64,000 nucleotides of DNA from a bacterium (GTDB lineage Bacteria; Patescibacteriota; CPR2; UBA1875; JAJYID01). This document shows, piece by piece, positions 32,026 to 63,702 of this stretch; position 1 is the first letter of the stretch, and every line of letters starts with the position of its first letter. The position numbers and the translations under genes are program-made. The notes beneath the pieces are model-generated. The model worked only from the letters and a program-made list of their open reading frames with translations, did no database searches and was not told where the DNA came from. Where the stretch lies: positions 24,556 to 88,555 of the forward strand of contig JAJYLR010000002.1 of the NCBI GenBank assembly GCA_021787535.1, in the 5' to 3' direction.

Positions 32026-32107
32026 CATCAGAATACATATGTCTTGTCAGATTAAGATATAATTGACACTGTTGGCAATTTTTGCTATATTTTAACTTGT
32101 TTTCAAG

Positions 32108-34173: not shown

Positions 34174-35087
34174 ATCTAAACAAAATTAAGCTTAGAAAAC
34201 TTTTATTTACTCAGGACAAAAAGTATACAATCAAGTGGATTAACTATGAGTTTTGCTCATCCTGTAATCTTAGGTGCAAATGGTGCTCACTGGATCATAA
34301 AAAGAAACCTATGTTTATAACAAATGAGATTTTGACATCTAGTCTGGATAATATAATACAAGATGAAGGGTTTGATATTGAGCGGATAGATTTGCATAAT
34401 GCCGGTGAGACATTGCTTCATCCGAAACTATCAGAATTATTAGGTATTCTAGCTAGCAAAAAAAAAGAGTTTAAAAACAAACCAACTATTCATCTCCTGA
34501 CGAATGGAACCTTGTTAAATGAAGAAAAGACGAAAATTATTCTTGCAAGTAATGCCCTTGACGAATTACGAGTTAGTATTGATGGTGGGACTAGACAATA
34601 TTATAACGAGATAAGGATTGGCGCTGATTGGGATAAAGTCAAAGAAAGAATTTCAAACTTTATTACATTCAATAAAAAGAAAATTAAAATTGGTGTTATT
34701 TGCATGGTGCCTCAAGAAAAACCACTGACAACTGACTGGATGGAAAGGGATTTTAAAGAACTTTTTAGTAAAATGGATAGTGTAGACCTTAGACATCCTC
34801 ATAACTGGGATGGGGCTAAAGATTTAAACTTATTTAAAAGTTCTGATTGGAAGGAGGAAAACAAGTTATGTAAATTCCTGTTAAAAAATCTGGTTATTCT
34901 TCCAAATGGAGATGTTACCGTTTGTTGTGCTGACTTGAATTCCAGAGGTGTTGTAGGGAACCTAAGAAACAAAACACTGACTGAGATCTTTTTTTCAGAA
35001 TCGAGATTAAAAATGATTGATTTATATAATAAAGGAAGGAAGTCAGAAATAGAACTTTGCAAAAACTGCACAGGATATTATGAATAG
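34158..35087 (+). CDS. radical SAM enzyme with C-terminal SPASM/twitch Cys cluster
   Basis: CNLRCKWC (CxxxCxxC). C-terminal VTVCCADL...CKNCTGYY auxiliary-cluster cysteines. Confidence 0.7.
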   Translation: MENFMNLNKIKLRKLLFTQDKKYTIKWINYEFCSSCNLRCKWCSLDHKKKPMFITNEILTSSLDNIIQDEGFDIERIDLHNAGETLLHPKLSELLGILASKKKEFKNKPTIHLLTNGTLLNEEKTKIILASNALDELRVSIDGGTRQYYNEIRIGADWDKVKERISNFITFNKKKIKIGVICMVPQEKPLTTDWMERDFKELFSKMDSVDLRHPHNWDGAKDLNLFKSSDWKEENKLCKFLLKNLVILPNGDVTVCCADLNSRGVVGNLRNKTLTEIFFSESRLKMIDLYNKGRKSEIELCKNCTGYYE

Positions 35088-35128
35088 TTTAATAAGTTGT
35101 TGTTGTTCACTAAAAGAGGTTTTCGCAT

Positions 35129-38062
35129 ATGAATGATGAAAAAAAATTATATTTGGAAGAACTACCATTTGATACTTATGGGAGACATGCTCTTATTCGA
35201 GATATTATTAATCTTGATCGTTCTGGCGATAAGATTAAAATACTTGATGTTGGGGGACGATATAATCTTATGACGAAATTTTTCCCAAATGACGAGGTTT
35301 TTTACCTTGATTTGGAGATTAACCCAGGGGATAAAAATGCAGTACAAGGTGATGGTTGCGATATTCCGCTCAAAGACAATAGTTTTGACTATGTTGTATC
35401 CTCTGATGTTTTCGAGCATATAAAACAAAAGGATAGGCAAAGATTTCTAAGGGAGTGCATGAGGGTAGCGAAAAATGGGCTTGTTTTAGCAGCTCCATTT
35501 TATTCAAAAGAAGTTGAGGAGGCGGAGAAAATTGCTAACGAAAGTTACAAAATAATTTTTGGGGGGCAAGACCATAGATGGCTTATTGAACATATAAAAA
35601 ACGGATTGCCAAGGGAAGATGAAGTTAAGAACTTTGTAAAAAGTAATAATTTGTACTCACAGGTATCTAACGTAAATAACCTTGGGTTGTGGGCGCAGTT
35701 AATCACAATCGGCTTTATAGCGATAGACAAAGGATTGATTAGTGAAGAATATAGTCGATTTAATAAATTCTACAATCAAGAGATTTACCCTATAGACAGA
35801 ACAAGGAACTCATATCGTAAAATCTTCCTTATTAAAAGAGAAAATAACTTTAATATGCCAAAAATTACAGAGGAGATTCCATTGGATTTGTACTTAAGAG
35901 CTGTTTCAATGGGCAACAATTTAACATTTGGTGTGATTAGTAAACTGGAGAGTAATGAAAGGGAACTGATTTTGAAAAATCAAGAGATCAGGAAAGAAAT
36001 GAAACAACAACTGGATCAAAAGCACAAAGAGCTAGAAGAAAAAGTGAAAGAGACAGAAGAGATACGGACTTCAACAAGTTGGAAGGTTACAAAGCCAATG
36101 AGAAAAATCAAAGATATAAGTAATAAAGTCTTATTATTAGGTAAAAAATCCATTACTGTGATCAAAGAGGAAGGTGTCTTTGAATTTTTTAAGCGAGTGG
36201 GTAAATACGTAACTCATAGAACAATAGCTAGATTGCATCAACAAAAAACCTTCTCCCATAGTTACCTAGATATCTCCCAATGGTATCAGGGAAATAAGAA
36301 GAAAGTGACTGTAGTCATACCAAGTTATAACGACTACAAATTGCTTAAAAAATGTATTGATAGTATTAACAGGACAGCAGATGAGAGATATGTGGATGTG
36401 ATAATAGTTGATGATGCTAGTACTAAGAATGAACACCAAAGCTTTTTGAAGTCATTAAACCAGAAGAATATTAAAGTAATCTATAACAAGAAAAATAGTG
36501 GTTTCGCCAAAACAGTTAATGTTGGTATGAAGGCAGCAAAAACCGGTGATATTGTTGTTTTAAATAGTGATATAGAAGCAAAGAAATACTGGCTTGAGTC
36601 TCTTCAGTATGCTGCATATTCCTCAAAAGACATAGGAATCGTCGGTGGTAAGCTTCTATATCCTAATAAAACCATTCAATATGCTGGATCATATCGTAAT
36701 CTAGATGCTCCTGAATGGTTTGATCACTATTACCGTTTTAAACCATCATCTTTTCCACCCGCAAATATACCTAACTTTGTACTAGGAATTACAGGGGCTT
36801 GTATGTATATCAAAAGCGAGGTAATTAAAAACATAGGTTATATGGATGAAAAATTTCCAATGGCCTTTGAGGATATGGATTATAGTATACGGGCTTGGAA
36901 TGTGGGATATAAAAGTCTGTATTTCCCTATGGCTACTCTCATTCATCATGAGTCGATTACACGTGGGACAAAACAAGGAGCTCGAGAGAAGGAATCTCTC
37001 AGATATTTCTGGCAAAAATGGGGTGATTGGTTTGACAAAAGAAATGTAAGAAATAGTGAGGGAGTAACAAAGATTATATATGTTATTCAATCTACGGGTG
37101 TTGGTGGAGGAGCGAGGATTATATTTGAACATGTTAATAAACTTAAAGAGCTTGGTTATGATGTAGAACTCTATAATCTCGAAGGAAATCCAAAATGGTT
37201 TAAGCTAGACGTTCCAGTGAAGACGTTTAAGAACTATTCTCAGCTTATAAAAGCATTGGAAAATGAAGAGGCAATTAAAGTTGCCACTTGGTGGGAAACA
37301 GCAGAACCAGTTTGGCTTTCTTCTGTAAGAAAGGGAGTCCCAGTTTATTTCGTCCAAGACATAGAATCGTCTTATTACAAAGATGATGAATATATGCAGA
37401 ACTTTGTGTTATCAAAGTACAGAAAGGAATTCAGATATTTTACTACCTCTGGAGTTAATGAAAAGGCACTTAAGGATATGGGTTTAATACCAGCAGTCAT
37501 TCCTTGTGGCATGGATACCACTATATATAAACCTCTTGAGGTGAAAAGAGAAAAAGATGTGATGCTTTCTGTAGGTCGAAGTCACTACTTGAAGAATCTC
37601 ACTATGACTATGGATGCTTGGAAAGAAATCAAAGATAAACAACCTACATTTTGGATGTTTGGTATAGAACCACAAGTTGCTGATGGAATACAAAATACTA
37701 AATACTATTACAAACCAACAGATGAAGGTGTAAACGAACTTTATAATAAGGCAACTATATTTGTTCAAACTTCAAGACATGAAGGTTTTTGTCTCCCTGT
37801 TCTAGAAGCTATGGCTGCTGGGGCTCCAGTGATATGCACAGATGCACATGGAAATGCAGATTTCTGTGTCGATGGGGAAAATTGTCTGATGATTGAGCAT
37901 GATGATGTAAATAATCTTAAAAGACAGATTAAAAAACTTTTCTCAGATAAGAAACTACAAGAAAAATTGAGGAAATCAGGATATAAAACAGCGCAGCAAT
38001 ATTCCTGGCCAGTTATAATGAAAAAATTAACAAATTTTTTTGATAACATTGCAAATAATTAG
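35129..38062 (+). CDS. three-domain glycan-synthesis protein: class I SAM methyltransferase - coiled coil - GT2 glycosyltransferase - GT1/GT4-like glycosyltransferase
   Basis: MTase motif I ILDVGGRYN and post-I acidic DL. Coiled-coil at about aa 260-310. GT2 VTVVIPSYND..IIVDDAS..DMDY. C-terminal RHEGFCLPVLEAMAAGAPVI (E-x7-E). Confidence 0.7.
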   Translation: MNDEKKLYLEELPFDTYGRHALIRDIINLDRSGDKIKILDVGGRYNLMTKFFPNDEVFYLDLEINPGDKNAVQGDGCDIPLKDNSFDYVVSSDVFEHIKQKDRQRFLRECMRVAKNGLVLAAPFYSKEVEEAEKIANESYKIIFGGQDHRWLIEHIKNGLPREDEVKNFVKSNNLYSQVSNVNNLGLWAQLITIGFIAIDKGLISEEYSRFNKFYNQEIYPIDRTRNSYRKIFLIKRENNFNMPKITEEIPLDLYLRAVSMGNNLTFGVISKLESNERELILKNQEIRKEMKQQLDQKHKELEEKVKETEEIRTSTSWKVTKPMRKIKDISNKVLLLGKKSITVIKEEGVFEFFKRVGKYVTHRTIARLHQQKTFSHSYLDISQWYQGNKKKVTVVIPSYNDYKLLKKCIDSINRTADERYVDVIIVDDASTKNEHQSFLKSLNQKNIKVIYNKKNSGFAKTVNVGMKAAKTGDIVVLNSDIEAKKYWLESLQYAAYSSKDIGIVGGKLLYPNKTIQYAGSYRNLDAPEWFDHYYRFKPSSFPPANIPNFVLGITGACMYIKSEVIKNIGYMDEKFPMAFEDMDYSIRAWNVGYKSLYFPMATLIHHESITRGTKQGAREKESLRYFWQKWGDWFDKRNVRNSEGVTKIIYVIQSTGVGGGARIIFEHVNKLKELGYDVELYNLEGNPKWFKLDVPVKTFKNYSQLIKALENEEAIKVATWWETAEPVWLSSVRKGVPVYFVQDIESSYYKDDEYMQNFVLSKYRKEFRYFTTSGVNEKALKDMGLIPAVIPCGMDTTIYKPLEVKREKDVMLSVGRSHYLKNLTMTMDAWKEIKDKQPTFWMFGIEPQVADGIQNTKYYYKPTDEGVNELYNKATIFVQTSRHEGFCLPVLEAMAAGAPVICTDAHGNADFCVDGENCLMIEHDDVNNLKRQIKKLFSDKKLQEKLRKSGYKTAQQYSWPVIMKKLTNFFDNIANN

Positions 38063-50812: not shown

Positions 50813-50840
50813 GGGCCGTCCGGTAACTGCCGGACGGCCC
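50813..50840 (+). terminator. GC-rich perfect hairpin (11-bp stem)
   Basis: GGGCCGTCCGG-taactg-CCGGACGGCCC after the small ORF pair. Weak U-tract, so may act as a transcript-stabilising or terminating structure. Confidence 0.45.
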
Positions 50841-50908
50841 AAAATCTTTGGATTGATTTTTTACGCTATTTTCGCTATAATATTCCAGTATTTGCACCTC
50901 AAAAATAA

Positions 50909-52612: not shown

Positions 52613-52675
52613 GATTTCTCCTTTTGTTTAATTCAATTATACATTTGCCTCTCGTGATTAAAAAGATTAATCAAC

Positions 52676-52694
52676 TGTGTTATAATAACACTAT
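52676..52694. promoter_or_regulatory. palindrome TGTGTTATAATAACACTAT in divergent promoter region (candidate operator overlapping a TATAAT)
   Basis: GTGTTAT/ATAACAC perfect inverted arms. Near-identical to the 53900-53920 palindrome. Confidence 0.5.
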
Positions 52695-52708: not shown

Positions 52709-53101
52709 ATGGAAAGAGAAAGACCAGGAGAAGAAATAAAAGAAGGTGATCAAAAAGATAGCTTACACCAAAGGGTAGAAAAAGTTCTTAAAAAAGCCCG
52801 AGAACACGATAATTTTCAAAGAGAAAATAGAGGCGGAGAACTTCCGGAAATATTTGCAGACATTGATCGGGAAGGATTTGTTAGTTTTGGAGTGATTTCA
52901 CATGGTCTTATGAATAAACAGAGCCAATATGCGAGCAGGTATCTTAATGAAAAATTTTCTGATGAATATCCATATCTTGGAGAAGATATCAGATTGAAGG
53001 GTGATCTTGATGATTATCATGCGTTTAGAATACATAAAGATGATATCGAAGAGTTTGTAGAAAGATATGAAAAATACATGAAAAAAATTGGAGCGATGTA
53101 A
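52709..53101 (+). CDS. small acidic hypothetical protein (130 aa)
   Basis: ORF with TAATG overlap to the downstream NrtR-like gene. No recognisable motifs. Confidence 0.4.
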   Translation: MERERPGEEIKEGDQKDSLHQRVEKVLKKAREHDNFQRENRGGELPEIFADIDREGFVSFGVISHGLMNKQSQYASRYLNEKFSDEYPYLGEDIRLKGDLDDYHAFRIHKDDIEEFVERYEKYMKKIGAM

Positions 53102-53787
53102 TGAGGAGAGAAGAGGACTTTATCCCATCGCCAGTTGCCACCGATGTTGTTATTTTTACAGTCATTGGGAATGAGCTCAATGTACTTTTAGTAAAAAGAG
53201 GAAAGTTTGCGCCTCTCGGCTGGTCCTTGCCTGGCGGATTTGTTGGACAAAGGGAAGATCTGGATGAATCAGCGGTTAAGACCTTGCGGGAGAAAACCGG
53301 TGTCAGAAATGTTTACCTCGAACAGCTATATACATTCGGTGAACCCAAACGAGATCCTCGAGGCAGAGTCATATCGATAGCTTATATGGCACTAGTTGAT
53401 GCTCAAATGGTCAAGCTTGAGAAGGGCAAAGATACAGAAGGCATAAAGTGGCTACCAGTCAAGAAACTGCCTCAACTTACCTTCGACCACAGACAAATTA
53501 TTGATTATGCAAAAAAGCGGCTTATTTGGAAGATGGAATATACCAATGTTGTTTTCTCGCTTTTGCCTACTTATTTTTCACTGACAGAGCTACAGAAGGT
53601 TTATGAGGCAATTCTTGAACGGGATCTGGACAAAAGGAACTTCAGAAGAAAGTTTTTATCTACAGGGCTCATTAAGGAGACGAAGAAGAAAAGCCAAGGT
53701 GCGCATAGACCGGCGACTCTCTATAATTTTGCCGAAAAGCGGCTTGAATATATTACAAATCCTTTTGGCCAATTTCTCAAAAAATAG
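53101..53787 (+). CDS. NrtR-like Nudix-wHTH transcriptional regulator
   Basis: Nudix box GGFVGQREDLDESAVKTLREKTGV. C-terminal about 70-aa winged-helix-like region (FSLTELQKVYEAILERDLDKRNFRRKF), as in the NrtR family. Confidence 0.6.
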   Translation: MRREEDFIPSPVATDVVIFTVIGNELNVLLVKRGKFAPLGWSLPGGFVGQREDLDESAVKTLREKTGVRNVYLEQLYTFGEPKRDPRGRVISIAYMALVDAQMVKLEKGKDTEGIKWLPVKKLPQLTFDHRQIIDYAKKRLIWKMEYTNVVFSLLPTYFSLTELQKVYEAILERDLDKRNFRRKFLSTGLIKETKKKSQGAHRPATLYNFAEKRLEYITNPFGQFLKK

Positions 53788-53826: not shown

Positions 53827-53854
53827 TTGACAGTGTTTTAAAAGGGAGTATAAT
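53827..53854 (+). promoter_or_regulatory. sigma70-type promoter upstream of PP2C/kinase operon
   Basis: TTGACA, 16 nt, TATAAT. The -10 overlaps the palindrome TAGTGTCACATATACACTA. Confidence 0.6.
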
Positions 53855-53872
53855 AGTGTCACATATACACTA
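53854..53872. promoter_or_regulatory. palindrome TAGTGTCA-cat-ATACACTA (candidate operator at -10/+1)
   Basis: AGTGT/ACACT inverted arms immediately at the -10 of the promoter. Confidence 0.5.
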
Positions 53873-53899
53873 ATAACGTGTGTTTTTAAAAAATAAAAG

Positions 53900-53920
53900 A
53901 TAGTGTTATAAAAACACTAT
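53900..53920. promoter_or_regulatory. palindrome ATAGTGTTATAAAAACACTAT (candidate operator)
   Basis: 8-bp perfect inverted arms. Same half-site family. A third reversed copy ACACTTAGTGT lies at 53933-53943. Confidence 0.5.
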
Positions 53921-54030
53921 TAAATAATCAAAACACTTAGTGTATATGAAACAATTACAAAGGGGCGATCATATCAAACTGATGAGAACTTTGACAAAAG
54001 AATCGCTAAAACCTATAGAAAGGAACCGAA

Positions 54031-54762
54031 ATGGAGCTCTTACGAATAAGGGGAGGTAGAGTCATAGGAAGGCAACATTCTTTGGCAGGCAAGAACAGTC
54101 AGGATGCTTATCAAATCTATGAGCCAGAGATAATAACTTCATTATTCTCAGAGCCCAAAGTGTTTCGAGCGGGTATTCTCTCTGATGGATGCGGAAGTAC
54201 CAAGACCAGTGAGGTTGGGGCAAACCTTATCGTTCAAAAGATAGTAAGCATTCTTTGCGAAAGCAAAGTTGTGAGAATGTGCCGGAGATGGTCTCTGGAG
54301 GAGATTATTGATTACATTGAGGATTCAACATATGAGTTTCTCGATGAACTCTCAAGGGGCTGGCGGCAAATTCCATTTGTCCAAGATAATCTCTTGGCTA
54401 CTATTCTAGGGTTTGTAACTAATGGGAAAAAGCTGGTGATATTCTCAAGCGGTGACGGAACAATATTTCTTGATGATGATGTTCTTGTTATTGATGAGGA
54501 TAACACACCATCCTACTTTGCCTATCGTTTATTCGAGAAGCAAGTCAGTTTTAAGAGGATAGAGGTTGATCTGCAAAAAGTGCAGAGAGTTGCGATAGCA
54601 AGTGACGGCTTTGAACCGGAGCTTATAAATGAGTTCTGGGGCAAAGAACATCCAAATGGGGTTCAACGTCTCTTGAACGTTTATTCAAAGAAAAAGCACT
54701 TTTTGGATGATGCAACCTTAATAACTCTCGAGAAAATTCAGGGGGAAGGAGGTAGAAAATGA
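54031..54762 (+). CDS. PP2C-family Ser/Thr protein phosphatase
   Basis: PP2C motifs GRQHSLAGKNSQDAY, LSDGCGST, IASDGFEP, and a C-terminal Asp (LDDATLITLE). Confidence 0.65.
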   Translation: MELLRIRGGRVIGRQHSLAGKNSQDAYQIYEPEIITSLFSEPKVFRAGILSDGCGSTKTSEVGANLIVQKIVSILCESKVVRMCRRWSLEEIIDYIEDSTYEFLDELSRGWRQIPFVQDNLLATILGFVTNGKKLVIFSSGDGTIFLDDDVLVIDEDNTPSYFAYRLFEKQVSFKRIEVDLQKVQRVAIASDGFEPELINEFWGKEHPNGVQRLLNVYSKKKHFLDDATLITLEKIQGEGGRK

Positions 54763-56606
54763 AAGTCGTAGTCCAGGGGAAGGCGATCAATCTCAATCCG
54801 AAAGACGTACTGGGAACCGGCGGTGAGGCAGTAGTGATCAAGAAAGGCAAAGCGGCATACAAGATATTTCACCAGCCGAGTAGAGAAAAAACACAGAAAC
54901 TCCAATCCCTTCTCAAGAAAAGACTGCTCCTGCCAGATCGGGTACTTGCGCCTCTTAAACTGGTAAAAGCGGCAGGCGGCGGCGGAGTGATTGGATATAT
55001 GATGCCGCTTGCTGATCCGGGAGCAGAACCGCTGGCAAAACTGAGCAATCGGAACTTTAGAAAGACTAGCAGGATCAACATCAAAGACGTTACCGATATC
55101 TTCTTGGACACGTATAGAACAGTTGAAAAACTTCACTCGGCCGGCTTCGTGGTAGGAGACTTAAATGACTTAAATGAGATTTTTCTGGGAGATAAAGTCT
55201 ACTTTATAGATGTAGACAGCTTTCAGTTTGATCGGTTTTCCTGCCAGGTGGCAACAGAGCCATTCTTAAGTCCGACTCTCTATAATAAAGACCTGACCAA
55301 CGGTTTGGTTTTTACTCCGGAGACGGATTGGTACAGTTTCGCTGTTCTGTTATTCCGTTCACTGCTTCTGGTTCATCCTTATGGTGGTGTTCACCCCAAG
55401 ATAAATCAACTGACCGAAAGGGTAAAAAAGAGGGTAACCGCATTTGACAAAGATGTGCGTTATCCGAAATTTGCCCTAAACAGAGAAATACTTTCTGACG
55501 AGCTGCTTGACTACTTCGAGAAGACTTTCGAGAAAGGCCGTATAAGCCAATTCCCAAAGAACATTCTCGAGCAGTACGATGGCATTCTAATCAAATGCTC
55601 TAAGTGCCATGATTATTTCCCTAACAACAGGCGTCAATGTCCGGCATGCAGTACAAAGTCGGCGTTTGTAATAAACCAGAAGATAATCCTCGACTATGAG
55701 ATATCTCTGATTACTGAAACGCTCGGACAGTTTGTCTATTCCAAACTAGTTGGCAATAAGCTTTACGCTATTGCCTACGAAGATGGTATGGCAGTACTGC
55801 ATACATGGAAGAAAGGAGAGAAAACGCAAAAAACAGTCCTTTTTCCAGTAGCTCGGGATCTGGGCTTTGACATCGCCTTCGACAAGTTAATTCTGTCGAG
55901 AAAGGGCTCTAAGCAACTGATAGTTTTAGATGCAAATGATGGTTCGGTATTTACAAAAACCACGACCGATTTGTTCCAAAACTATCCGATAAAAGCCGGT
56001 ACCCATGATTCGCTGTACAGAACAGCCGGCGGTATTCTCCTAAAGTCAGAAATGATGGCAGGGAATCTCGTAAGCAGGACTGTTTCCACCATAGCCGATG
56101 AACAGACCTGGTTTCACGGAGAAACTGTTCAGGGTAAAGAAAAACTAGCAGTGGTTAGCCGGATCTTTGACAAATGGGTCTACCGGGTCTTGGTAGATGG
56201 TGCCAGCTATGAAGCTGATGTTAGGGAGCTCGAAAAAGGCGAGAAGCTAGTGTCTCTAAACGCCCGTTTCGATACAAAGGGCGCTCTTGTTATCCGTGAG
56301 ACAAAAAAGAAGGGTAAAGCATTTGTCCTGCTTGATTATATAAGTGACAATGGCGTTTCTCTCTTCTACAGTCGGGAAACATACAACGACGAAGATCATG
56401 GTAACTTACAGGGTGCAACCTTAGGAAACGGTTCGCTTCTCTTTGCCACGGCAAATGGACTCAAAGGCAAGTCTCTCACGAAGGGCAGCACTTTTGAGTT
56501 CACTGGAACTGATAAGTTCATTCAGGGAAATGAAAAAATCCACGGACTTCAAGGAGGCATTATTGTCGTAAGTGATAATAAGGCATTCCTGATAAGAAAG
56601 AGGTGA
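54759..56606 (+). CDS. Hanks-type Ser/Thr protein kinase with zinc ribbon and about 330-aa beta-rich C-terminal domain
   Basis: Gly-loop LGTGGEAVV, Lys (AYKIF), catalytic loop GFVVGDLNDLNEIF, DFG-equivalent DVDSFQF, APE-like EPFLSP, DxWS (TDWYSF). CxxC..CxxC (CSKCH..CPAC). ATGA overlap with the phosphatase. Confidence 0.7.
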   Translation: MKVVVQGKAINLNPKDVLGTGGEAVVIKKGKAAYKIFHQPSREKTQKLQSLLKKRLLLPDRVLAPLKLVKAAGGGGVIGYMMPLADPGAEPLAKLSNRNFRKTSRINIKDVTDIFLDTYRTVEKLHSAGFVVGDLNDLNEIFLGDKVYFIDVDSFQFDRFSCQVATEPFLSPTLYNKDLTNGLVFTPETDWYSFAVLLFRSLLLVHPYGGVHPKINQLTERVKKRVTAFDKDVRYPKFALNREILSDELLDYFEKTFEKGRISQFPKNILEQYDGILIKCSKCHDYFPNNRRQCPACSTKSAFVINQKIILDYEISLITETLGQFVYSKLVGNKLYAIAYEDGMAVLHTWKKGEKTQKTVLFPVARDLGFDIAFDKLILSRKGSKQLIVLDANDGSVFTKTTTDLFQNYPIKAGTHDSLYRTAGGILLKSEMMAGNLVSRTVSTIADEQTWFHGETVQGKEKLAVVSRIFDKWVYRVLVDGASYEADVRELEKGEKLVSLNARFDTKGALVIRETKKKGKAFVLLDYISDNGVSLFYSRETYNDEDHGNLQGATLGNGSLLFATANGLKGKSLTKGSTFEFTGTDKFIQGNEKIHGLQGGIIVVSDNKAFLIRKR

Positions 56607-56665
56607 GGCAAGGCAAAAAAACTGATAGTCAAGTCCAATTCCTATTTCCAAAAAGGAGGAAAAAA

Positions 56666-57589
56666 ATGAAAGCGCCAGCTTTCTATGATCCTGCTATCAT
56701 TGGATCTCTTGAATTGCCAAAGGTCCAAGAAGCAACGGAAGAAGGCCGCCGGCAGAATGTAGCTCCGGCTGCCGAAGACAAGCAGAAAGTCATCCTGGTA
56801 AATGTAGATTTCCAGGTCGACTTTGTCTTCCCAAACGGCGCCCTTCCGGTAGCAAATGCTCTCGGCGATGTAGAAAGGACAGTTGACTGGGTTTTTAGGA
56901 ACCTGGATCAAGTAACGACCATCGCCTCGAGCATCGACTCGCATATCCCCGTTCAGATCTTCTATTCCACTTGGTGGGTAGATGAGAACGGGAACCCGCC
57001 TGCTCCATATACGATGATCACGCTGAAAGACGTGGAGGACGGCAAGTGGAGGCCTGTCGTTGATCCGGTGTGGACGCGGAAATATCTGACAGAGCTGGAT
57101 AAGGGCGGCAAGAAAACTCTGATGATCTGGCCTTTCCACTGCATGATCGGCACTCCCGGTCAGGCACTGGTGCCGAATCTGATGGAGGCAATTGCCTTCC
57201 ACTCCGCTGCCAGGCGTTCGCAACCGGTATACCTCGTCAAGGGCTCCATCCCTCAGACGGAAAACTACTCCATCGTTGAGCCCGAAGTAAAGTATCCCAA
57301 GCATCCGGCCGGTGACTTAAATACTCCGTTTCTGGACCTTGTGGCCAGACACGACCTGGTTTATGTAGCCGGCGAGGCGAAGAGCCACTGCGTGTTGGAT
57401 ACGATGCATTCCATCGTGAAACACTTTGCCGGTCAGGATGAAATCCTCGGCAAGATCCGTTTTCTGATGGACTGCACATCTTCGGTGGAGCATCCCGATG
57501 TTCCGTTCAATGAAATCGCCAATGCCGAACTCGCCGAAATGGAAAAGCTCGGCGTCCGTTTGGTCAAATCCACCGATCCGATCGGCTAA
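56666..57589 (+). CDS. nicotinamidase-like isochorismatase-family hydrolase (PncA-like, long form)
   Basis: D-x-Q-x-DF (VNVDFQVDF), conserved Lys, Cys nucleophile in AGEAKSHCVLDT. Strong RBS AAAAAGGAGG. Start at Met 56666. Confidence 0.55.
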   Translation: MKAPAFYDPAIIGSLELPKVQEATEEGRRQNVAPAAEDKQKVILVNVDFQVDFVFPNGALPVANALGDVERTVDWVFRNLDQVTTIASSIDSHIPVQIFYSTWWVDENGNPPAPYTMITLKDVEDGKWRPVVDPVWTRKYLTELDKGGKKTLMIWPFHCMIGTPGQALVPNLMEAIAFHSAARRSQPVYLVKGSIPQTENYSIVEPEVKYPKHPAGDLNTPFLDLVARHDLVYVAGEAKSHCVLDTMHSIVKHFAGQDEILGKIRFLMDCTSSVEHPDVPFNEIANAELAEMEKLGVRLVKSTDPIG

Positions 57590-57611
57590 TTTAAAAGGAG
57601 GAGGTGACAAA

Positions 57612-58388
57612 ATGTCTAATATGAACGATGTCAACGATCTCTTCGAAGAGGCGGTTGAGGACGGTCTGGATGAACAAGCGAGCCAGATCATGGTAGCAAA
57701 CCTCGACGCAGTGGCGCTCGCCGGCTGTCAAGGTACAGAGATCGACCTTATCCCTGAGGATGAGGTTACACTAGTCTCTGTCATTCACGATGGCAGCGGT
57801 TCTATGAGCGGCGCGCGCGACGTGGTAGTCCAGAGCTATGAAGGCTTGCTCGACGCCTTAAGAAATTCAAAAAAGGCAGAGAGCATCTTCATTTCTGACT
57901 GGATCTTCAACACTCAGTCGGACTTAGTCCACGACTACTTGCCGGTTGAGCAAGCACCTGATCTCGGTAACAGCTACTTTCCAGGCGGCGGAACAGCTCT
58001 TTATGACACTGTTATGAAGGGCTTAAGCGGTATCGTCGCTTATGGCCAGCAGCTGAGATCAAACGGTGTTCGTACCAAGAACGTAGTTGTTGTCTTTTCT
58101 GATGGTGAAGATAACAGCTCAGGGGTTACGAACACAGAAGTCAAAAAAGTCACGAAGGCCCTTCTCGCTCAAGAGACATTCATCCTTGCCTATGTTGGTT
58201 TCACCACATACGGCATGATGAATGAAGCTGAAGTACAGCGTCTTGCTGGCGAGATCGGTTTCAATGACGTTATCGCGGTTGGCACGAGCCCTTCCGAAAT
58301 CCGGAAGATCTTCCAACAGGTAAGCGATTCTATTATACAAGTTAGCCAGTCGGCTGTTTCGTCCGGCGGATTCTTCGCCGCACCTTAA
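57612..58388 (+). CDS. von Willebrand factor A (vWA) domain protein (TerY-like)
   Basis: MIDAS DGSGSM (DxSxS), later Thr and VVFSDGEDN. Strong RBS AAAAGGAGGAGG. Confidence 0.65.
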   Translation: MSNMNDVNDLFEEAVEDGLDEQASQIMVANLDAVALAGCQGTEIDLIPEDEVTLVSVIHDGSGSMSGARDVVVQSYEGLLDALRNSKKAESIFISDWIFNTQSDLVHDYLPVEQAPDLGNSYFPGGGTALYDTVMKGLSGIVAYGQQLRSNGVRTKNVVVVFSDGEDNSSGVTNTEVKKVTKALLAQETFILAYVGFTTYGMMNEAEVQRLAGEIGFNDVIAVGTSPSEIRKIFQQVSDSIIQVSQSAVSSGGFFAAP

Positions 58389-58452
58389 GCAGCCGGTAAC
58401 TAACCTGTAGCTGTTTCTTTAAAAGAAACAAGGGGAATAATGCTTTAGCAAA

Positions 58453-58521
58453 GCGCCCCGGGCAAACGCCCGGGGTTCCCCTCCCAACATGGTCCGAAAA
58501 GGATCACCAATATGTACCTTG
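58453..58521 (+). promoter_or_regulatory. conserved leader element copy A (hairpin 1 - GGGGTTCCC - hairpin 2 - CCAATATGTACCTTG box)
   Basis: CCCCGGGC-aaac-GCCCGGGG hairpin. GGTCC-gaaaa-GGATC hairpin. Conserved box directly 5' of the RBS of ORF 58561. Confidence 0.45.
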
Positions 58522-58560
58522 GAAACCAACTATAAACTTTCTTGATTAGGAGAGATGAAA

Positions 58561-58698
58561 ATGTCCGGTTCAGATACAAGTATGATAAGGCCTATGACCA
58601 TCCAAGAACGGCTCGCCAGACTGGAAGAAGAAATGGCAAATGTCAGATTGCAAATGGAAAGAGAGAGGAGTGAAGATGATCCGCGCAGAAACACTTAG
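58561..58698 (+). CDS. small protein (45 aa), unknown
   Basis: RBS AGGAGAG 6 nt upstream. Helical RLARLEEEMANVRLQMERER. Not in the ORF track (below the length cut-off). Confidence 0.35.
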   Translation: MSGSDTSMIRPMTIQERLARLEEEMANVRLQMERERSEDDPRRNT

Positions 58699-58960
58699 GA
58701 GAATCATCGAAGATGCCGAGAGAGATATCGCTTCTACCCGTAAGTTTCTCGCCAGACAGAAAGCAGAGCTCAAGATGATCGAAGGCACCTGTCTCCACTC
58801 CTTCACGAAGTTTGTCTACGATCCAATCGTGACAATACCGGAAGCCAAGTGGCAAGGCAAGGGCCTGGTCGCGCCGGATGACATAACCGTTCGTTTCGTC
58901 AAACAGTGTGTTATCTGCGGCATGACCCGGATGGTCGAGACAGAATCGGCTCTCAACTGA
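58676..58960 (+). CDS. small Cys-containing protein (94 aa), unknown
   Basis: RBS GGAG within the upstream ORF end. CLHSF..CVICGM possible zinc-binding pairs. Start taken at Met 58676 (the track ORF 58640 has no RBS). Confidence 0.4.
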   Translation: MIRAETLRRIIEDAERDIASTRKFLARQKAELKMIEGTCLHSFTKFVYDPIVTIPEAKWQGKGLVAPDDITVRFVKQCVICGMTRMVETESALN

Positions 58961-59013
58961 CAGTTGGTCAAAGCTATTCTTTTTAAAAAAGAATGGGATT
59001 AAAGCAATGGCAT

Positions 59014-59082
59014 GCGCCCCGATGGATATCGGGGTTCCCTTCACATTATGGCGCTAAAAAGCGCCGCCAAATATGTACCTTG
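59014..59082 (+). promoter_or_regulatory. conserved leader element copy B
   Basis: CCCCGAT-ggat-ATCGGGG hairpin. GGCGC-taaaaa-GCGCC hairpin. CCAAATATGTACCTTG box. 5' of the RBS of the Nudix gene. Confidence 0.45.
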
Positions 59083-59121
59083 ACAACAGAATAAGCTAAA
59101 ATAAGAACAAAGGAGAGGATT

Positions 59122-59682
59122 GTGAAGATAATTAATGAAGAAACCTTGGCCGAAACGCCGTTTCTAAAGCTTGTCAGACTGGATTGCATAAGTCCTTTAG
59201 GAAGACGCTTGAAGTGGGATGGTACAAGGAGAGAAAACCGAAGAGCAGTCAGTGTAGTTGCCGTTACAAAAGACGAAAAGATAATTCTAGTGCGGCAGCC
59301 TCGTTACTTAATTGGCAGTGAAGTGATCGAATTTCCTGCCGGTCTCCTGGATATTAAGGGAGAAAATATGATCAAGACAGCAAAAAGAGAACTTCTCGAA
59401 GAAACCGGCTATGAGGCGACAGATTTTACCATTCTCCTGGGAGGAGAGGAAGGACTTGTCAATTCTCCCGGTATGACAGACGAAAGATCGTCTCTTGTCG
59501 TATGTAAAAATGCCGTCAAAGCCGCTGAACCGCTGGAAAATGAAGAAACCAAACCCTTCCTGCTTGATTTAAAAGGGGCTTACCAAGAATTGAAAGAGTT
59601 AGCTCAAAGGGAAGAAGTGGCCTTTAAGGTTTTCGGTAACCTGGCCCTAGCGAAAGATTGGTATGAAGGGAGGAGAAAGTGA
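59122..59682 (+). CDS. Nudix hydrolase (ADP-ribose pyrophosphatase-like)
   Basis: Nudix box GLLDIKGENMIKTAKRELLEETGYE. GTG start with RBS AAAGGAGAGG. Confidence 0.7.
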   Translation: MKIINEETLAETPFLKLVRLDCISPLGRRLKWDGTRRENRRAVSVVAVTKDEKIILVRQPRYLIGSEVIEFPAGLLDIKGENMIKTAKRELLEETGYEATDFTILLGGEEGLVNSPGMTDERSSLVVCKNAVKAAEPLENEETKPFLLDLKGAYQELKELAQREEVAFKVFGNLALAKDWYEGRRK

Positions 59683-60479
59683 AGGTATATCTGGCTATCA
59701 AACACGGGGATAAAGCTCAGTATATGGTAAAGAAACTGAGGGCGATATTTCCAAATCTGGGTATAGAAGAAATAAGTACACCCGAAGAAGCTGATAAGAT
59801 ATTCTCTGTCGGCGGAGACGGAACTCTTCTATATAACATTCAGAAATATCTCCACCTTGAGAAACCGCTTATCGGCATTAACGCCGGATCTGTCGGATAC
59901 CTCTGCCGAGCGCATGAAGACAACATGGAAGAAGACTTAAAGGAAGCATTAAACGAAGAGCCGCTAACTTTTTATGCCTTCGATGTAACATCAGAAAAAC
60001 TAGAGGAGGTGGCGATAGCGGAAGTAAGAGTAGAACGGCCCACACTTGATTGTGTCAGGATGAAAATAGTGAATAATGGTGCAACCTTAGCTCATAAACA
60101 TATCGGCGATGGCATCATTATTACAAACTCTCTGGGTTCTACTGGCTATAACGACTCGGCCGGCGGACCAATTCTCGCACTAGATGATAAGCGTGCGGTC
60201 TTAACCCCCATCTGCCCCTACAAAAGAGGAGGGGAAATATACGACTCAATCATAACCTCACAGATCTATGATGATATTGATATAGAAATCATCACAGATC
60301 ATGATGCGCGGCTGGTTCTGGAAAATCGGGGGTTTGTATTGACTGCCGGAGAGCCCGTACACATTACCTATGGCAAGAAAAAGTTCTTTCTTCACACGAA
60401 GAGAAAGGATGAAAGGAGAGAGGAAAATGAAAAAAAATCAGATACAAGCAAAACGCTTAAAACCAAAGCTCGGCTTTGA
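59679..60479 (+). CDS. nadK: NAD+ kinase
   Basis: GGDGTLL and NDSAGGPI motifs. GTG start with RBS GGGAGGAG. Confidence 0.8.
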   Translation: MKVYLAIKHGDKAQYMVKKLRAIFPNLGIEEISTPEEADKIFSVGGDGTLLYNIQKYLHLEKPLIGINAGSVGYLCRAHEDNMEEDLKEALNEEPLTFYAFDVTSEKLEEVAIAEVRVERPTLDCVRMKIVNNGATLAHKHIGDGIIITNSLGSTGYNDSAGGPILALDDKRAVLTPICPYKRGGEIYDSIITSQIYDDIDIEIITDHDARLVLENRGFVLTAGEPVHITYGKKKFFLHTKRKDERREENEKKSDTSKTLKTKARL

Positions 60480-61632
60480 TGATGTGGATGTCTATCTTCC
60501 AAGGGGCATCAAAGCTCTTGAAGCCGAGGGCCAAAACCCGATAGGTTTCTGGCGGCTCTTCCAGAGGCATGAAGGGGCTAGATTTTTTGGCATTCATGAG
60601 TTTATGAGTGCTCTCGCATCTCTGGTTCACAAGGATGATCTGGAAGACATCGTGATTTATGCAGTCCCTGAGGGCTATCAGCTGAAACGCCATGAAACGG
60701 CGGTTACGATGGAAGGTCCTGCCAGAAGTCTTCTGGCAAACGAGACGCTTCTGCATTACCTCTCGACCGGAACGCGTTTCCGCACTCTTGCCGGCGATTT
60801 CCCCTTTGATACCATAGCATCTCCCTGGGTTTTCATGGGTGCAAGGTATCTTTCTCTGGAGGATCTGACAATAGCGACCAGGGCGTTGAGCGAGGAAGGC
60901 ATTGTCTCAACCGTTCCCAGTCTGGCTGACAAAGTGATTGGCACAGAAAGCCATTCTCAGATTGCCATGTGGGGAGCGCTTAGACTGGATAGCGTGGCTG
61001 AAGAAGCCATTCAAAGCATTACGCGTGATCCGGGGACGCAGGCTACGATTCGGGCAACGGTAGCTTTTAACAAAGCAAATCCTGAGGTGCCGCTCTTTGT
61101 TCTGGGTGACTTTGCAGCCAGAAGCATTGGCTGCTTTGAAACATTCAAGGCAACCAAAAAAGCATGTGACCTTCTTGGCATCAAACTGGTTGGCGGCCGG
61201 ATGGATATCTCGAAAGCCGACTTAAACGATGAACCGATTGTGGATGCGGCCTTTGGCGGAAACTCGAAAGAAGATGCCGGCATGAAACTGCATGTAGTCA
61301 AAAAGATCCGTCAAATGTTAGACAAAGACGGCATGAGCGGTTTCAAGCTTGTTGTTTCAAGCGGGATCAAGCTTGAGGATATAGGCAAATACAGAGAAGT
61401 CGGAGCCGATATCATCGGTATCGGCGAACAAGCGGCTTACTACTTAAACCAAGGCCAATGCAACTTCACTTCAGACGCTTCCGGTTTCTTTGAAGGTGAA
61501 CGGCTGGTTCCTTTTGCCAAAGAAGGCCGGGAACTTCGGCGGGTGATGGCATCCGAAGATCTTGTAAATGCAGCCAGAGGCATCAAGATCTCCGATTCAC
61601 TAGTTCGCCATAATCTACGAAATTACGTCTAA
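60427..61632 (+). CDS. pncB: nicotinate phosphoribosyltransferase, archaeal-type (type II PRTase)
   Basis: Segments IVIYAVPEGYQL, TMEGPARSLLANETLLHYLS..RFRTLAG and FKLVVSSGIKLEDIGKYREVGADIIGIGEQ match the short NAPRTase family. Start at Met 60427 with RBS AGGAGAGAGG. Confidence 0.65.
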   Translation: MKKNQIQAKRLKPKLGFDDVDVYLPRGIKALEAEGQNPIGFWRLFQRHEGARFFGIHEFMSALASLVHKDDLEDIVIYAVPEGYQLKRHETAVTMEGPARSLLANETLLHYLSTGTRFRTLAGDFPFDTIASPWVFMGARYLSLEDLTIATRALSEEGIVSTVPSLADKVIGTESHSQIAMWGALRLDSVAEEAIQSITRDPGTQATIRATVAFNKANPEVPLFVLGDFAARSIGCFETFKATKKACDLLGIKLVGGRMDISKADLNDEPIVDAAFGGNSKEDAGMKLHVVKKIRQMLDKDGMSGFKLVVSSGIKLEDIGKYREVGADIIGIGEQAAYYLNQGQCNFTSDASGFFEGERLVPFAKEGRELRRVMASEDLVNAARGIKISDSLVRHNLRNYV

Positions 61633-61692
61633 TTAAAACGGCGGGCGCTTCACATCAAGAAGCGCCCGCTCCAAAACCAAAGGGAGAAGAAA

Positions 61693-62457
61693 ATGAAATT
61701 CGATGTACAAAAGTTCACCGACAAGGCTTGTAATTTCCTACAAAATTACATGCGAGACAATAATCTGAACAAAGTCGTCATCGGCTTGTCCGGCGGCGTT
61801 GATTCGGCCACAGCTCTTGCCCTCGCGGTAAGGGCGCTTGATCCGGACCGGGTAATCGCAGTCACTATGCCAAACGGCGTGCTCGGTTTTAAAGACCGGG
61901 ATGATGCGCGTCTTGCGGCGGAGACCTTCGGCGTAAAGGATTTGAGAGATGTCGATATCTCTCCCGCAGTAGAGACTTTCTGCGAAATGCTATCCTCGGA
62001 TCAACCGAAGTGCGTCGGTAATATTTCGGCCAGATGCCGGATGATCACTCTCTATGACATAGCCCGGCGGGAAGGTGCGATCGTACTTGGTACCGAAAAC
62101 AAGACGGAGCACTTCCTGGGCTACTTCACAAAGGCCGGCGATGAAGTGTCTGATATTGAGCTTATTCGAGACCTTTGGAAGACGCAGGTTCGCGAGCTGG
62201 CTCGTTCTTTGGGTGTTCCCAGGGAGATTATCGAGAAAGCTCCGAGCGCCCGTCTCTGGGAGGGTCAGACCGACGAAGATGAACTCGGCGTCATCTACGA
62301 ACTGGCCGACCAAATCCTGAAGGCATTGGTCGTGGACCAAAAGCAGGATGAAGACCTCGTTCGGGAAGGTTTTCAAACTCAAGATGTCGCCAAAGTCAGG
62401 GAGCTGATGGCGGGTATTGCTTTCAAGCTCCAGGATGTACCTTTCCCGAAAGTGTAA
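61693..62457 (+). CDS. nadE: NH3-dependent NAD+ synthetase
   Basis: PP-loop VIGLSGGVDSA, 254 aa. Confidence 0.85.
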   Translation: MKFDVQKFTDKACNFLQNYMRDNNLNKVVIGLSGGVDSATALALAVRALDPDRVIAVTMPNGVLGFKDRDDARLAAETFGVKDLRDVDISPAVETFCEMLSSDQPKCVGNISARCRMITLYDIARREGAIVLGTENKTEHFLGYFTKAGDEVSDIELIRDLWKTQVRELARSLGVPREIIEKAPSARLWEGQTDEDELGVIYELADQILKALVVDQKQDEDLVREGFQTQDVAKVRELMAGIAFKLQDVPFPKV

Positions 62458-62468
62458 ACAAACAAACC

Positions 62469-62497
62469 GGCCCCGCTATATGCGGGGCCATTTTCTG
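62469..62497 (+). terminator. rho-independent terminator after nadE
   Basis: GGCCCCGC-tatat-GCGGGGCC hairpin followed by ATTTTCTGATTTT. Confidence 0.75.
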
Positions 62498-62557
62498 ATT
62501 TTAAATGGTAAATTCTCTTCTTGAAAAAGTTTTGAATTTAACCTACTCTATTTAAGT

Positions 62558-63223
62558 ATGTTGGGACTTGTTATCGTAAACGGGCTGATAGACAGTTTTA
62601 ACCCCTGCGCCATAGGGATTTTTTTGATTTTCCTTTCGATGCTTTTTATGCTCAAAAAAGACAAAAAGCATATCTTTAAAATCAGCTTGGCCTATATTTT
62701 ATCCATTTACATTCTTTACCTCTTAATCGGTTTGGGTCTTATAAAGGTTATTTTCTTTCTCGGCATTCCCCACCTCATAACTTTTATCGGCGCGGTGATC
62801 ATTGTCTTGGTCGGGGTGCTTTCGATCAAAGATTACTTTTTCCCAAACTCTATGTTTTCAACCAAAATTCCTTACAGCGCCCGCCAGCTGATCTTGAAAT
62901 GGGCATATAAAGCTTCTTGGCCGGCGGCAGCTGTCATGGGGGTCTTAGTCGGCATCTCCGGTTTTCCCTGCGCCGGCGGGATCTATGTGGCAACGCTGGG
63001 TCTGCTTTCACAGAAATCTACCTTTATCCAGGGATTTTTCTACCTCTTGCTTTACAACTTGATGTTCGTGATGCCGCTCATAGTTATTTATGCGGCCACA
63101 GCCAACCAAAAAGTGGCTATGAAAATGCTGGACTGGCAGGAGAGAGAAAAAAACCACATGAAACTGATCATGGGTCTTATCATGACGATATTAGGTGTTA
63201 TAATATTTAAGTGGTATATTTAG
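62558..63223 (+). CDS. ccdA: CcdA/DsbD-family thiol-disulfide transmembrane electron transporter
   Basis: TM1 Cys in SFNPCA, second Cys in GFPCAGGIY, 6 TM. Confidence 0.7.
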   Translation: MLGLVIVNGLIDSFNPCAIGIFLIFLSMLFMLKKDKKHIFKISLAYILSIYILYLLIGLGLIKVIFFLGIPHLITFIGAVIIVLVGVLSIKDYFFPNSMFSTKIPYSARQLILKWAYKASWPAAAVMGVLVGISGFPCAGGIYVATLGLLSQKSTFIQGFFYLLLYNLMFVMPLIVIYAATANQKVAMKMLDWQEREKNHMKLIMGLIMTILGVIIFKWYI

Positions 63224-63312
63224 TTACCAAATTGGTTAGTTGTAAGTTACTAAGTTCAAAGTTATTTTGTTAAAAATTTGTAGATTAGTAAACATTCGTA
63301 ATTGGTCACATA

Positions 63313-63702
63313 ATGAAAAAGTTTGTTCCATATATTATCATAGGGGTTCTGGTCATTGGCTTTATTGGCCTGATTGGCTATGTCAAGATGAGCCAAATAC
63401 CTAATCAGCCCCAGACCAACACCAAAATTTCTGATATAGAGCCATATTTCGACCAGAATGCTACCGTGATGTATTTTTATTCGCCAAACTGCTCTCATTG
63501 TCAGGATGAGAAGTCAGTGCTCACCGATCTTGCAAAACAAGGGTATAGGGTTAAGCCGATGAATATTTTGGACCACCCGGAATACGGCAAGCAGTACAAC
63601 ATTGAAGGCACGCCGACTTTTGTTTCCCAAAAAGACCAGGCGAGAGTTGTCGGTTTCCAAAAAGAAGATGCTCTAAAGTCCTGGCTTGATCAGCACAAGT
63701 AA
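63313..63702 (+). CDS. membrane-anchored thioredoxin-fold protein (CxxC)
   Basis: N-terminal TM. YFYSPNCSHCQ active-site motif. Adjacent to ccdA. Confidence 0.7.
   Translation: MKKFVPYIIIGVLVIGFIGLIGYVKMSQIPNQPQTNTKISDIEPYFDQNATVMYFYSPNCSHCQDEKSVLTDLAKQGYRVKPMNILDHPEYGKQYNIEGTPTFVSQKDQARVVGFQKEDALKSWLDQHK

Follow-up and report, generated by a model that had tools for sequence, protein, structure and literature searches.

The 64,000-nucleotide (nt) stretch of bacterial DNA analyzed here (the window, which corresponds to ENA ERZ27233565 k141_1711346) contains an operon for nicotinamide adenine dinucleotide (NAD) cofactor genes, and two look-alike stretches within it are true copies of a folded RNA element. 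In 5' to 3' order, the locus encodes a 130-amino-acid (aa) open reading frame (ORF), NrtR, PP2C (54031-54762), a kinase-like protein of 615 aa, a 307-aa protein, and a weakly vWA-like 258-aa protein (ending at 58388), after which copy A of the element is encountered. Copy A is followed by ORFs of 45 and 94 aa, copy B, and then the genes for Nudix, NAD kinase (nadK), an NAPRTase-like (pncB-like) protein of 401 aa, and NAD synthase (nadE, ending at 62457). Judged from sequence features, the element probably tunes NAD gene expression after transcription.

An initial annotation of this locus had recognized a duplicated element of about 70 nt with two hairpins. The features on which it relied are all present: GCGCCCC-N11-GGGGTTCCC at 58453-58479 and 59014-59040 (2 matches versus 0.18 expected); a box, CCAA(A)TATGTACCTTG, at 58507-58521 and 59068-59082 (the sole matches with ≤1 mismatch in 64 kb); hairpin 1, which is CCCCGGGC/GCCCGGGG in copy A and CCCCGAT/ATCGGGG in copy B; and hairpin 2, which is GGTCC/GGATC in copy A and GGCGC(T)/(A)GCGCC in copy B. 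The length proved too short. Pairwise alignment extends the likeness of the two copies by ~45 nt in the 5' direction, and alignment together with folding defines an element of ~120 nt per copy (58407-58527 and 58970-59088, + strand) with P0, P1, and P2 in addition to the two hairpins, which we designate P3 (hairpin 1) and P4 (hairpin 2). Both copies fold, from 5' to 3', into an AU-rich hairpin (P0), a P1/P2/P3 three-way junction, a linker, P4, and an unpaired tail that carries the box. P1 pairs a G-run with a C-run and encloses the small hairpin P2 and the GC-rich hairpin P3. Copy A represents type 1 and copy B type 2 of the element; their parts, in window coordinates, are as follows.

58407-58527, + strand: copy A, full element, after the vWA-like 258-aa gene and before the 45-aa and 94-aa ORFs (covariance model R1, 121 bits, E 1e-26)
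58413-58429, + strand: copy A P0, AU-rich hairpin GUUUCU/AGAAAC (folding and hand helix check)
58432-58481, + strand: copy A three-way junction (RNAalifold agrees with single-sequence folds)
58432-58436 with 58477-58481, + strand: copy A P1, GGGGA/UCCCC (folds, pair counts, manual helix table)
58442-58454, + strand: copy A P2, GCUUU-AGC-AAAGC (folds, pair counts, manual helix table)
58455-58476, + strand: copy A P3, GCCCCGGGC-AAAC-GCCCGGGGU (folds, pair counts, manual helix table)
58491-58505, + strand: copy A P4, GGUCC-GAAAA-GGAUC, with U58490 directly 5' (14-copy P4 covariation)
58506-58527, + strand: copy A single-stranded tail, A-CCAA-U-AUGUACCUUGGAAACC, comprising N-CCAA and the box (14-copy conservation, folds)
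58548-58563, + strand: Shine-Dalgarno (SD) sequence AGGAGAG and ATG start (58561) of the 45-aa ORF (sequence, gene call in L001)
58970-59088, + strand: copy B, full element, after the 94-aa gene and before Nudix-nadK-pncB-like-nadE (covariance model R1, 113.5 bits, E 9e-25)
58976-58994, + strand: copy B P0, AUUCUUUU-UAA-AAAAGAAU (folding and hand helix check)
58995-59039, + strand: copy B three-way junction, with P1 GGGA/UCCC (folds, pair counts)
59004-59015, + strand: copy B P2, GCA-AUGGCA-UGC (folds, pair counts)
59016-59035, + strand: copy B P3, GCCCCGAU-GGAU-AUCGGGGU (folds, pair counts)
59050-59065, + strand: copy B P4, GGCGCU-AAAA-AGCGCC, with U59049 directly 5' (14-copy P4 covariation)
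59066-59088, + strand: copy B tail, G-CCAA-AU-AUGUACCUUGACAACA (box search, 14-copy conservation)
59110-59124, + strand: SD sequence AAGGAGAGG and GTG start (59122) of the Nudix gene (sequence, gene calls)

The minimum free energy (MFE) of copy A is -47.9 kcal/mol (z -6.1, helices checked by hand), and copy B folds with a z of -2.75. The ribosome binding site, placed immediately next to the element in the initial annotation, lies ~25-35 nt past the box in the window copies.

Relatives were obtained by contig look-ups via the Nudix protein, the 94-aa protein, and the pncB-like protein (28 family homologues at E ≤ 1e-20; contig look-ups, n = 12). A covariance model was built from seven copies, and held-out or divergent copies were then searched, with matches in L003_1 (E 3e-7), L025 (1e-15), L027 (1e-6), L026 (2.5e-5), and L029 and L030 (1e-7). 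The covariance-model search of relatives that the initial annotation had proposed as a check thus yielded extra covarying copies, for 14 in total on nine contigs of related uncultured bacteria. All 14 contain the core formed by P4 and the tail, and 12 also contain P0-P3. Full elements occupy both orthologous positions in L003, L006, and L024, whereas single full elements are found in L025 (before nadK), L027 and L030 (each before pncB), and L029 (ahead of a 64-aa ORF and pncB). Two copies consist of the core only. They lie close to the promoter, in the leader of a nadM-like gene in L026 and in that of PP2C in L029, and each is downstream of TTGACA-N17-TATAAT and three NrtR boxes. Reduced forms also occur, as a hairpin with GGCACCUUGAAAGGAG only in L031 and as a box-only remnant before PP2C in L030, and the more distant L005 and L028 have NrtR boxes only and no element.

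When 160 kb that included all of the window were searched with a model of the core, the 14 sites were the only ones retrieved. Each copy precedes an operon gene (nadM-like, Nudix, nadK, pncB-like, PP2C, or small ORFs) accompanied by NrtR or NrtR boxes. The element is restricted to the NrtR/NAD regulon, and the tie to NAD genes drawn in the initial annotation extends to every copy. A dispersed repeat of the repetitive extragenic palindrome or miniature inverted-repeat transposable element type was rejected, since the 64 kb contain just two copies, which share the NAD operon and recur at orthologous positions in relatives. All nine contigs derive from metagenomes, and the distribution is narrow, with no cultured host. 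The lineage itself is rare, with just three close homologues of the Nudix protein. Apart from the JGI contigs L028 and L031, in which the core is missing, all members come from ENA, Logan, and NCBI data. When viral contigs and JGI metagenomes were scanned with exact patterns and with proteins, only chance matches without the rest of the motif were returned. Phage origin was likewise rejected, as blastn of 56000-63500 against a phage collection gave no match and the gene neighborhood is bacterial: LepA, PolA, DnaG, and RpoD are encoded in relatives, and the contig analyzed here has bacterial genes such as those for LepA, SOD, and thioredoxin nearby.

The collected copies reveal extensive compensatory change. 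In P4, 70/70 cells pair across the 14 copies, and three of the five pairs change on both sides; none of 500 shuffles reached the observed values, and slid controls paired in 25-63% of cells. The second pair appears as G·U, G-C, C-G, or U·G, the third as U-A, C-G, G-C, or U·G, and the fourth as C-G or G-C, with P4 of L024_2 (GGUGCU/AGCGCC) providing a U·G intermediate between U-A and C-G. Among the eight closest copies, helices P1-P4 are paired in 96.8% of 157 cells, and 9 of 21 pairs change on both sides (0/500 shuffles as good; slid controls, 43-62%). Hand-defined helices are all canonical in 12 copies, and single-sequence folds of the 12 give the same architecture (z -1.9 to -6.2). P3 spans 5-10 bp with at least nine distinct sequences and has an inner stem inserted in L025, while P0, present in 10 of 12 copies, ranges from AU-rich to CCGGC/GCCGG. 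The orthologue of copy A P0 in L006 is GCUUCUU/AAGAAGC (U-A to C-G), and that of copy B P0 in L003 is AUUCUCG/CGAGGAU, with two pairs altered on both sides. The third pair of P2 alternates between U-A and A-U. P1 matches a G-run with a C-run in every copy that has it, with a single G-C to A-U change (in L024_1); its covariation is slight, which tempers the support for that helix.

G·U pairs occur in GGUCC/GGAUC, GGUGCU/AGCGCC, and GUCCC/GGGGC. Read from the other strand, each of these would become A·C, which places the structure in the mRNA. Covariation and G·U pairing both bear out the proposal of the initial annotation that this is a selected RNA structure and not a protein-binding palindrome, and show it to be strand-specific.

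The core shared by all copies consists of a P4 of 5-7 bp with free stem sequence, followed by N-CCAA-(0-4 nt)-G(U)ACCUUGAAAA. Primary-sequence conservation is strongest outside the helices, and the most conserved stretch is the tail, N-CCAA-(0-4 nt)-GUACCUUGAAAA, which is single-stranded (unpaired in most of 12 single-sequence folds) and has its 3' end 29-58 nt ahead of the start codon. CCAA and A(C)CUU are invariant in the 14 copies, and the box consensus, reached after 0-4 variable bases, reads G-(U/A/C)-A-(C/A)-CUU-(G/A/U)-AAAA. U directly precedes P4 (position -1) in 14/14 copies, the closing G-C pair is invariant, and the base between P4 and CCA is A in 8, G in 1, and U in 5. The P4 loop, of 4-6 nt, is not conserved (GAAAA, AAAA, GAUAA, GUUUUA, CUUA, AAUA, AAAC, UUUC). 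On the 5' side, junction J1/2 is conserved as AUAAU or UUAAA, as is GC in the P2 loop. P2 is missing in L003_1 and L027, and P0-P3 in L026 and L029_0. The emphasis of the initial annotation on two hairpins therefore shifts: hairpin 2 and the single-stranded tail are most conserved, and the P0-P3 domain around hairpin 1 is dispensable in some copies.

The invariant bases around P4 bear on a role in mRNA processing and segmental stability, the main rival explanation, which we consider nearly as likely as regulation in cis and yet, taken by itself, doubtful. An endonuclease cut at or beside P4 would separate the PP2C, kinase-like, and vWA-like cistrons from the NAD cistrons; the GC-rich P0-P3 fold would guard the 3' end of the upstream fragment, and P4, flush with the new 5' end, would guard the downstream one. 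In a more specific version, P4-N-CCA would mimic a tRNA acceptor end that RNase P cleaves at the U(-1)/G(+1) junction. The order U at -1, invariant G-C closing pair, single unpaired base, and CCA is present in each of the 14 copies and matches determinants of bacterial RNase P, namely U(-1)/G(+1) and a 3' RCCA (PMC10731613). Cleavage of a hairpin in Escherichia coli hisCD mRNA by RNase P is a precedent (PMC10731613), and the tRNA genes in the window encode CCA. The window copies also lie at the borders of functional gene blocks inside one operon, their folds are stable without a U-tract, and P0-P3 is confined to copies lying between cistrons, being absent from the promoter-proximal L026 and L029_0, which have no upstream cistron. 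This last argument is weakened by the fact that the promoter-proximal copies follow NrtR-box palindromes able to form RNA hairpins. Moreover, the stem is 5-7 bp and not the 12 bp that RNase P measures, there is no T-loop, the post-stem base is U in 5/14 copies and hence not always a purine, and the invariant 12-nt downstream box is left unexplained. A general RNase site also need not be confined to one regulon.

The element belongs to no cataloged family tested. At gathering thresholds, Rfam 15 returned no match in the window and nine related loci except tRNAs, and permissive scans (E up to 10; three copies) gave only unrelated sub-threshold matches, none recurring on the element strand. The comparison with NAD+-I, NAD+-II, and other riboswitch models suggested in the initial annotation thus came back negative, and the element was previously uncataloged. 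A new-class metabolite riboswitch for an NAD-pathway compound (NAD+, nicotinate mononucleotide, nicotinamide mononucleotide, nicotinate, ADP-ribose, or phosphoribosyl pyrophosphate) would be one form of a factor-sensing RNA. Such a riboswitch would account for a conserved, covarying structured domain found exclusively with NAD genes and for a fold of several helices in which bases of J1/2 and a GC in the P2 loop are conserved; the C-rich 3' strand of P1 resembles an anti-SD and pairs with the SD in two MFE folds only. We nevertheless judge it unlikely. Besides the lack of a matching Rfam riboswitch model, the junction domain is dispensable in four copies, and the universal core is a plain variable-loop hairpin and single strand with no supported pseudoknot. 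Neither a conserved terminator nor an SD-sequestering switch was found, and metabolite sensing for the same operon is already supplied by NrtR.

The transcription unit to which the copies belong is outlined by the following features.

52658-52692, + strand: promoter of the NrtR operon (130-aa ORF and NrtR) with an overlapping NrtR box at 52676-52692 (promoter/box search)
53101-53787, + strand: NrtR homologue, Nudix plus WHD_NrtR (precomputed Pfam matches)
53827-53854, + strand: operon promoter TTGACA-16-TATAAT, upstream of PP2C (12/12 consensus positions)
53855-53871, 53902-53918, and 53939-53955, + strand: three NrtR boxes, TAGTGT-N7-ACACTA, directly after the promoter (fit to AGTGT-N7-ACACT)
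61641-61680, + strand: possibly related hairpin between the pncB-like gene and nadE, with an 11-12 bp GC-rich stem, (U)CCAAAACCAAA, and then an SD (hairpin-NCCAA search)
62469-62489, + strand: intrinsic terminator GGCCCCGC-UAUAU-GCGGGGCC with a U-rich tail, after nadE; the apparent operon end and sole canonical terminator

The NrtR operator is a 21-bp palindrome with a GT-N7-AC core, to which the window boxes conform (PMC2330246). No promoter-like site was called on the + strand between 58380 and 59130. Given the promoter at 53827, the terminator at 62469, and no internal promoter-like site between them, the simplest reading places both copies between cistrons of a single mRNA under NrtR control. 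The flanking genes are those described in the initial annotation, which had assigned the copies to two separate leaders; in the present reading they share one operon and are intercistronic, not promoter-proximal.

With these features placed, an element acting at the level of DNA becomes the least probable explanation considered here, and a very improbable one; the roles weighed were a terminator, a repressor operator (for NrtR or some other protein), and a promoter inside the operon whose -35 would be the box. The box does contain TTGAAA or TTGACA, and type 2 copies have TAGAAT or TAAAAT 17 nt after TGTACC. A sigma-70 promoter was rejected in the absence of a promoter call; in L025, L026, L027, and L031 the SD starts 0-10 nt past the box, too near for a promoter to fit. 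Nor is the element an NrtR operator, as it lacks the 21-bp GT-N7-AC palindrome and differs in sequence and symmetry from the true boxes (TAGTGT-N7-ACACTA), which are elsewhere. An intrinsic terminator was rejected because no U-tract follows the hairpins, P3 and P4 preceding UUCCCC and NCCAA, respectively; real terminators of the organism have U-tracts (window 62469-62489; L028 4015-4040). In addition, the hairpins include G·U pairs and vary in sequence from copy to copy.

Position within one long operon also raises the prospect of a transcription-elongation signal: RNA polymerase would either pause in a hairpin-dependent manner or acquire, at an ops- or put-like site, an antitermination factor for read-through. 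An oriented, sequence-specific motif after a hairpin, at variable distance from start codons and at both leader and internal sites of the operon, would suit such a signal. It remains improbable, since no internal terminators needing read-through are evident, hairpin-box spacing varies by up to 4 nt, and no NusG paralogue or partner was identified; the case is one of resemblance only.

Several more specific interactions and functions were considered and rejected. A P5 helix between ACAU 5' of P4 and AUGU of the box is 70% paired, with no compensatory change and two clear counter-examples. An H-type pseudoknot between the P4 loop and the tail is excluded by the lack of loop conservation. By inspection, pairing of UGG in the P2 loop with CCA fails, uncompensated, in type 1 copies and in L024_2 (UAGC), and an alternative helix (UGGN/N'CCA) competing with P4 correlates only partially. 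An anti-SD model, in which ACCUU pairs with AAGG, is predicted in a minority of leaders. Complementarity of UACCUUG to CAAGGUA of 16S rRNA is a 7-nt match with a ~10% chance expectation and is weakened in variant boxes. A leader peptide or upstream ORF (MYL...) also fails: the box contains AUG in 9/14 copies, L024_1, L026, L029, L029_0, and L030 have none, and L025 reads AUG-UAA.

Taken together, a cis-regulatory RNA responsive to a metabolite or protein, as envisaged in the initial annotation, is plausible. The best reading, which we hold tentatively and at somewhat less than even odds, is a regulon-specific, factor-responsive mRNA operator acting in cis in an NAD-salvage operon, with the metabolite riboswitch described above making up the smaller part of that estimate. 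It builds on the RNA structure, strand, conservation, regulon restriction, and position inside the transcript, all of which are observed. Operators for trans-acting factors usually look like this, with a hairpin of free sequence beside an invariant single strand, in one regulon and a short way ahead of ribosome binding sites, hence our preference. We infer that a regulon-specific trans-acting factor would recognize the 3' module (P4 and tail) and that its occupancy would set translation initiation, and hence stability, of the following NAD cistrons, adding a layer of control above NrtR repression at the promoter. Because the P4 loop varies and there is no pseudoknot, this factor would more likely be a protein or other macromolecule than a small metabolite. 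The 5' module (P0 and P1/P2/P3), a very stable fold found only in copies lying between genes, would keep the operator folded independently of upstream coding RNA and would cap the upstream mRNA segment.

A number of observations weigh against an operator. No switching structure or expression platform proved to be conserved; the box is predicted to pair with the SD in only ~4/14 leaders, predicted SD accessibility ranges from 0.02 to 0.91 among the 14, and the box-to-start-codon distance varies from 29 to 58 nt. The candidate ACAU/AUGU helix, paired in 70% of cases without compensatory change, does not supply a switch, and no candidate RNA-binding partner gene accompanies all copies. The junction bases are conserved, yet the three-way junction is missing or simplified in four copies, which argues against a ligand pocket and leaves that conservation unaccounted for. 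The covariation alignments were fitted to the models, and all copies come from one narrow lineage, where shared ancestry inflates apparent conservation.

Known systems offer partial parallels. Like the NAD+ riboswitches of class I (nadA motif) and class II (pnuC motif), the element is a cis-acting RNA structure upstream of NAD biosynthesis or salvage genes; class II is small and adjoins the ribosome binding site. Neither model matches it, however, even at E up to 10 on three copies. The element instead combines a three-way junction, a hairpin, and a single-stranded tail without a supported pseudoknot, in another host lineage and in an operon that is also NrtR-controlled. Small riboswitches of the preQ1-I type comprise a short hairpin and an A-rich conserved single strand shortly before the SD, with the tail pairing to a conserved loop to form an H-type pseudoknot; the hairpin and A-rich tail before the SD are shared, whereas the loop of our element is not conserved. 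Intercistronic stabilizer stem-loops and protein-binding mRNA operators, such as ribosomal-protein leaders and the tRNA-like thrS operator, likewise lie between cistrons or ahead of an SD and keep structure with free stem sequence beside a conserved recognition sequence. The element differs from these in having no binding protein encoded alongside every copy and in being limited to one regulon and one lineage. NrtR operators serve the same regulon and share a leader region with the element in L026, L029, and L031 but are 21-bp DNA palindromes at separate sites (52676-52692 and 53855-53955). Non-tRNA substrates of RNase P include the hisCD operon mRNA hairpin, phage C4 and M3 RNAs, and the 4.5S RNA precursor (PMC10731613). 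Shared with these substrates are a hairpin with U(-1)/G(+1), a 3' N-CCA, and a polycistronic mRNA; the element has a stem of 5-7 bp versus ~12 bp, no T-loop, N = U in 5/14 copies, and the extra 12-nt box. In function, the element would most resemble small leader RNAs adjacent to ribosome binding sites and intercistronic stabilizer or processing elements.

Further hairpins and boxes of related appearance were found in and around the operon. The window has 12 hairpin-NCCAA sites, mostly intragenic; the only intergenic ones are those of the NAD operon and one before tRNA-Asn, where a 9-bp GC-rich hairpin at 50816-50842 is followed by CCCAAAA ~65 nt upstream of the tRNA gene. The hairpin at 61641-61680 has orthologues in L003 (4498-4524, within 4498-4530) and L006 (6222-6244, within 6222-6250), all with GC-rich stems of 10-12 bp whose sequences differ between genomes and which are followed by CCAAAACCAAA. 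It lacks the GUACCUUGAAAA box and is undetected by either covariance model; it may be a relative of the P4-NCCAA core. In the 5' leader of PP2C, GAGAACTTTGACAAAAG at window 53984-54000 (L024 ~3598-3615) constitutes a degenerate box, and the same place holds AGAACCUUGAAAAG in L030 and a full core of P4 and box in L029.

Gene content within the operon has features of its own. The perfect sigma-70 promoter and three NrtR boxes ahead of PP2C, with the fourth box overlapping the promoter of the 130-aa/NrtR operon, form a layout that is also present in L024, L026, L029, L030, and L031. The genes at window 54031-58388, encoding PP2C, the kinase-like 615-aa protein, and proteins of ~307 and ~258 aa, are conserved upstream of the NAD genes, under the NrtR promoter, and occur also in L024, L025, L029, and L030. 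This PP2C/kinase-like/vWA-like set resembles a TerY-type phosphorylation triad, and a signaling module inside an NAD regulon is unexpected. Between the two copies (window 58561-58960), the 45-aa ORF is coiled-coil-like and the 94-aa protein, zinc-ribbon-like and with only four members among 5.8 billion sequences, displays a C..H...CxxC pattern. L003 and L024 have a nadM-like (CTP_transf_like) gene in place of the 45-aa ORF, and L003 also encodes a 113-aa paralogue.

Elsewhere in the window, positions 534-1060 contain two tRNA-Ser genes, each followed by a hairpin and a duplicated acceptor 3' end (GGCACCGCCAAA, GGCACCGACAAA), and a small ORF is located between them at 660-930. The trailer of the first begins CCA-UGUACC, an echo of CCAA..UGUACC in the element, and may be an integration-site remnant or a coincidence. 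Two interleaved direct repeats of ~95 nt, 366 nt apart and 74-81% identical, are present at 27150-27781, which suggests a tandemly duplicated domain in a coding region. The G+C content falls to 0.33-0.35 across 32000-38000, compared with 0.40-0.50 elsewhere in the window, and may mark foreign DNA or a distinct gene class.

To our knowledge, no more than two classes of riboswitch are known to respond to NAD+, and protein repressors (NadR, NiaR, and NrtR) are credited with most NAD regulation in bacteria. Against this background stands a covariation-supported RNA that is specific to an NrtR regulon and appears two to three times in one operon. It is conceivable, if on balance unlikely, that the element represents a new class of regulatory RNA, devoted to NAD homeostasis and working with NrtR: either a third class of riboswitch for the NAD pathway, or a hairpin-N-CCA imitation of a tRNA acceptor end through which tRNA-processing machinery would be brought in to cut and differentially stabilize operon segments. 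With a core of ~50 nt, the RNA is compact and testable; a ligand or processing enzyme would be identifiable by standard assays, and the invariants U|G-stem-C-N-CCA followed by GUACCUUGAAAA are clear mutational targets. If the element is regulatory, NAD gene expression in these small-genome uncultured bacteria would be controlled at two levels.

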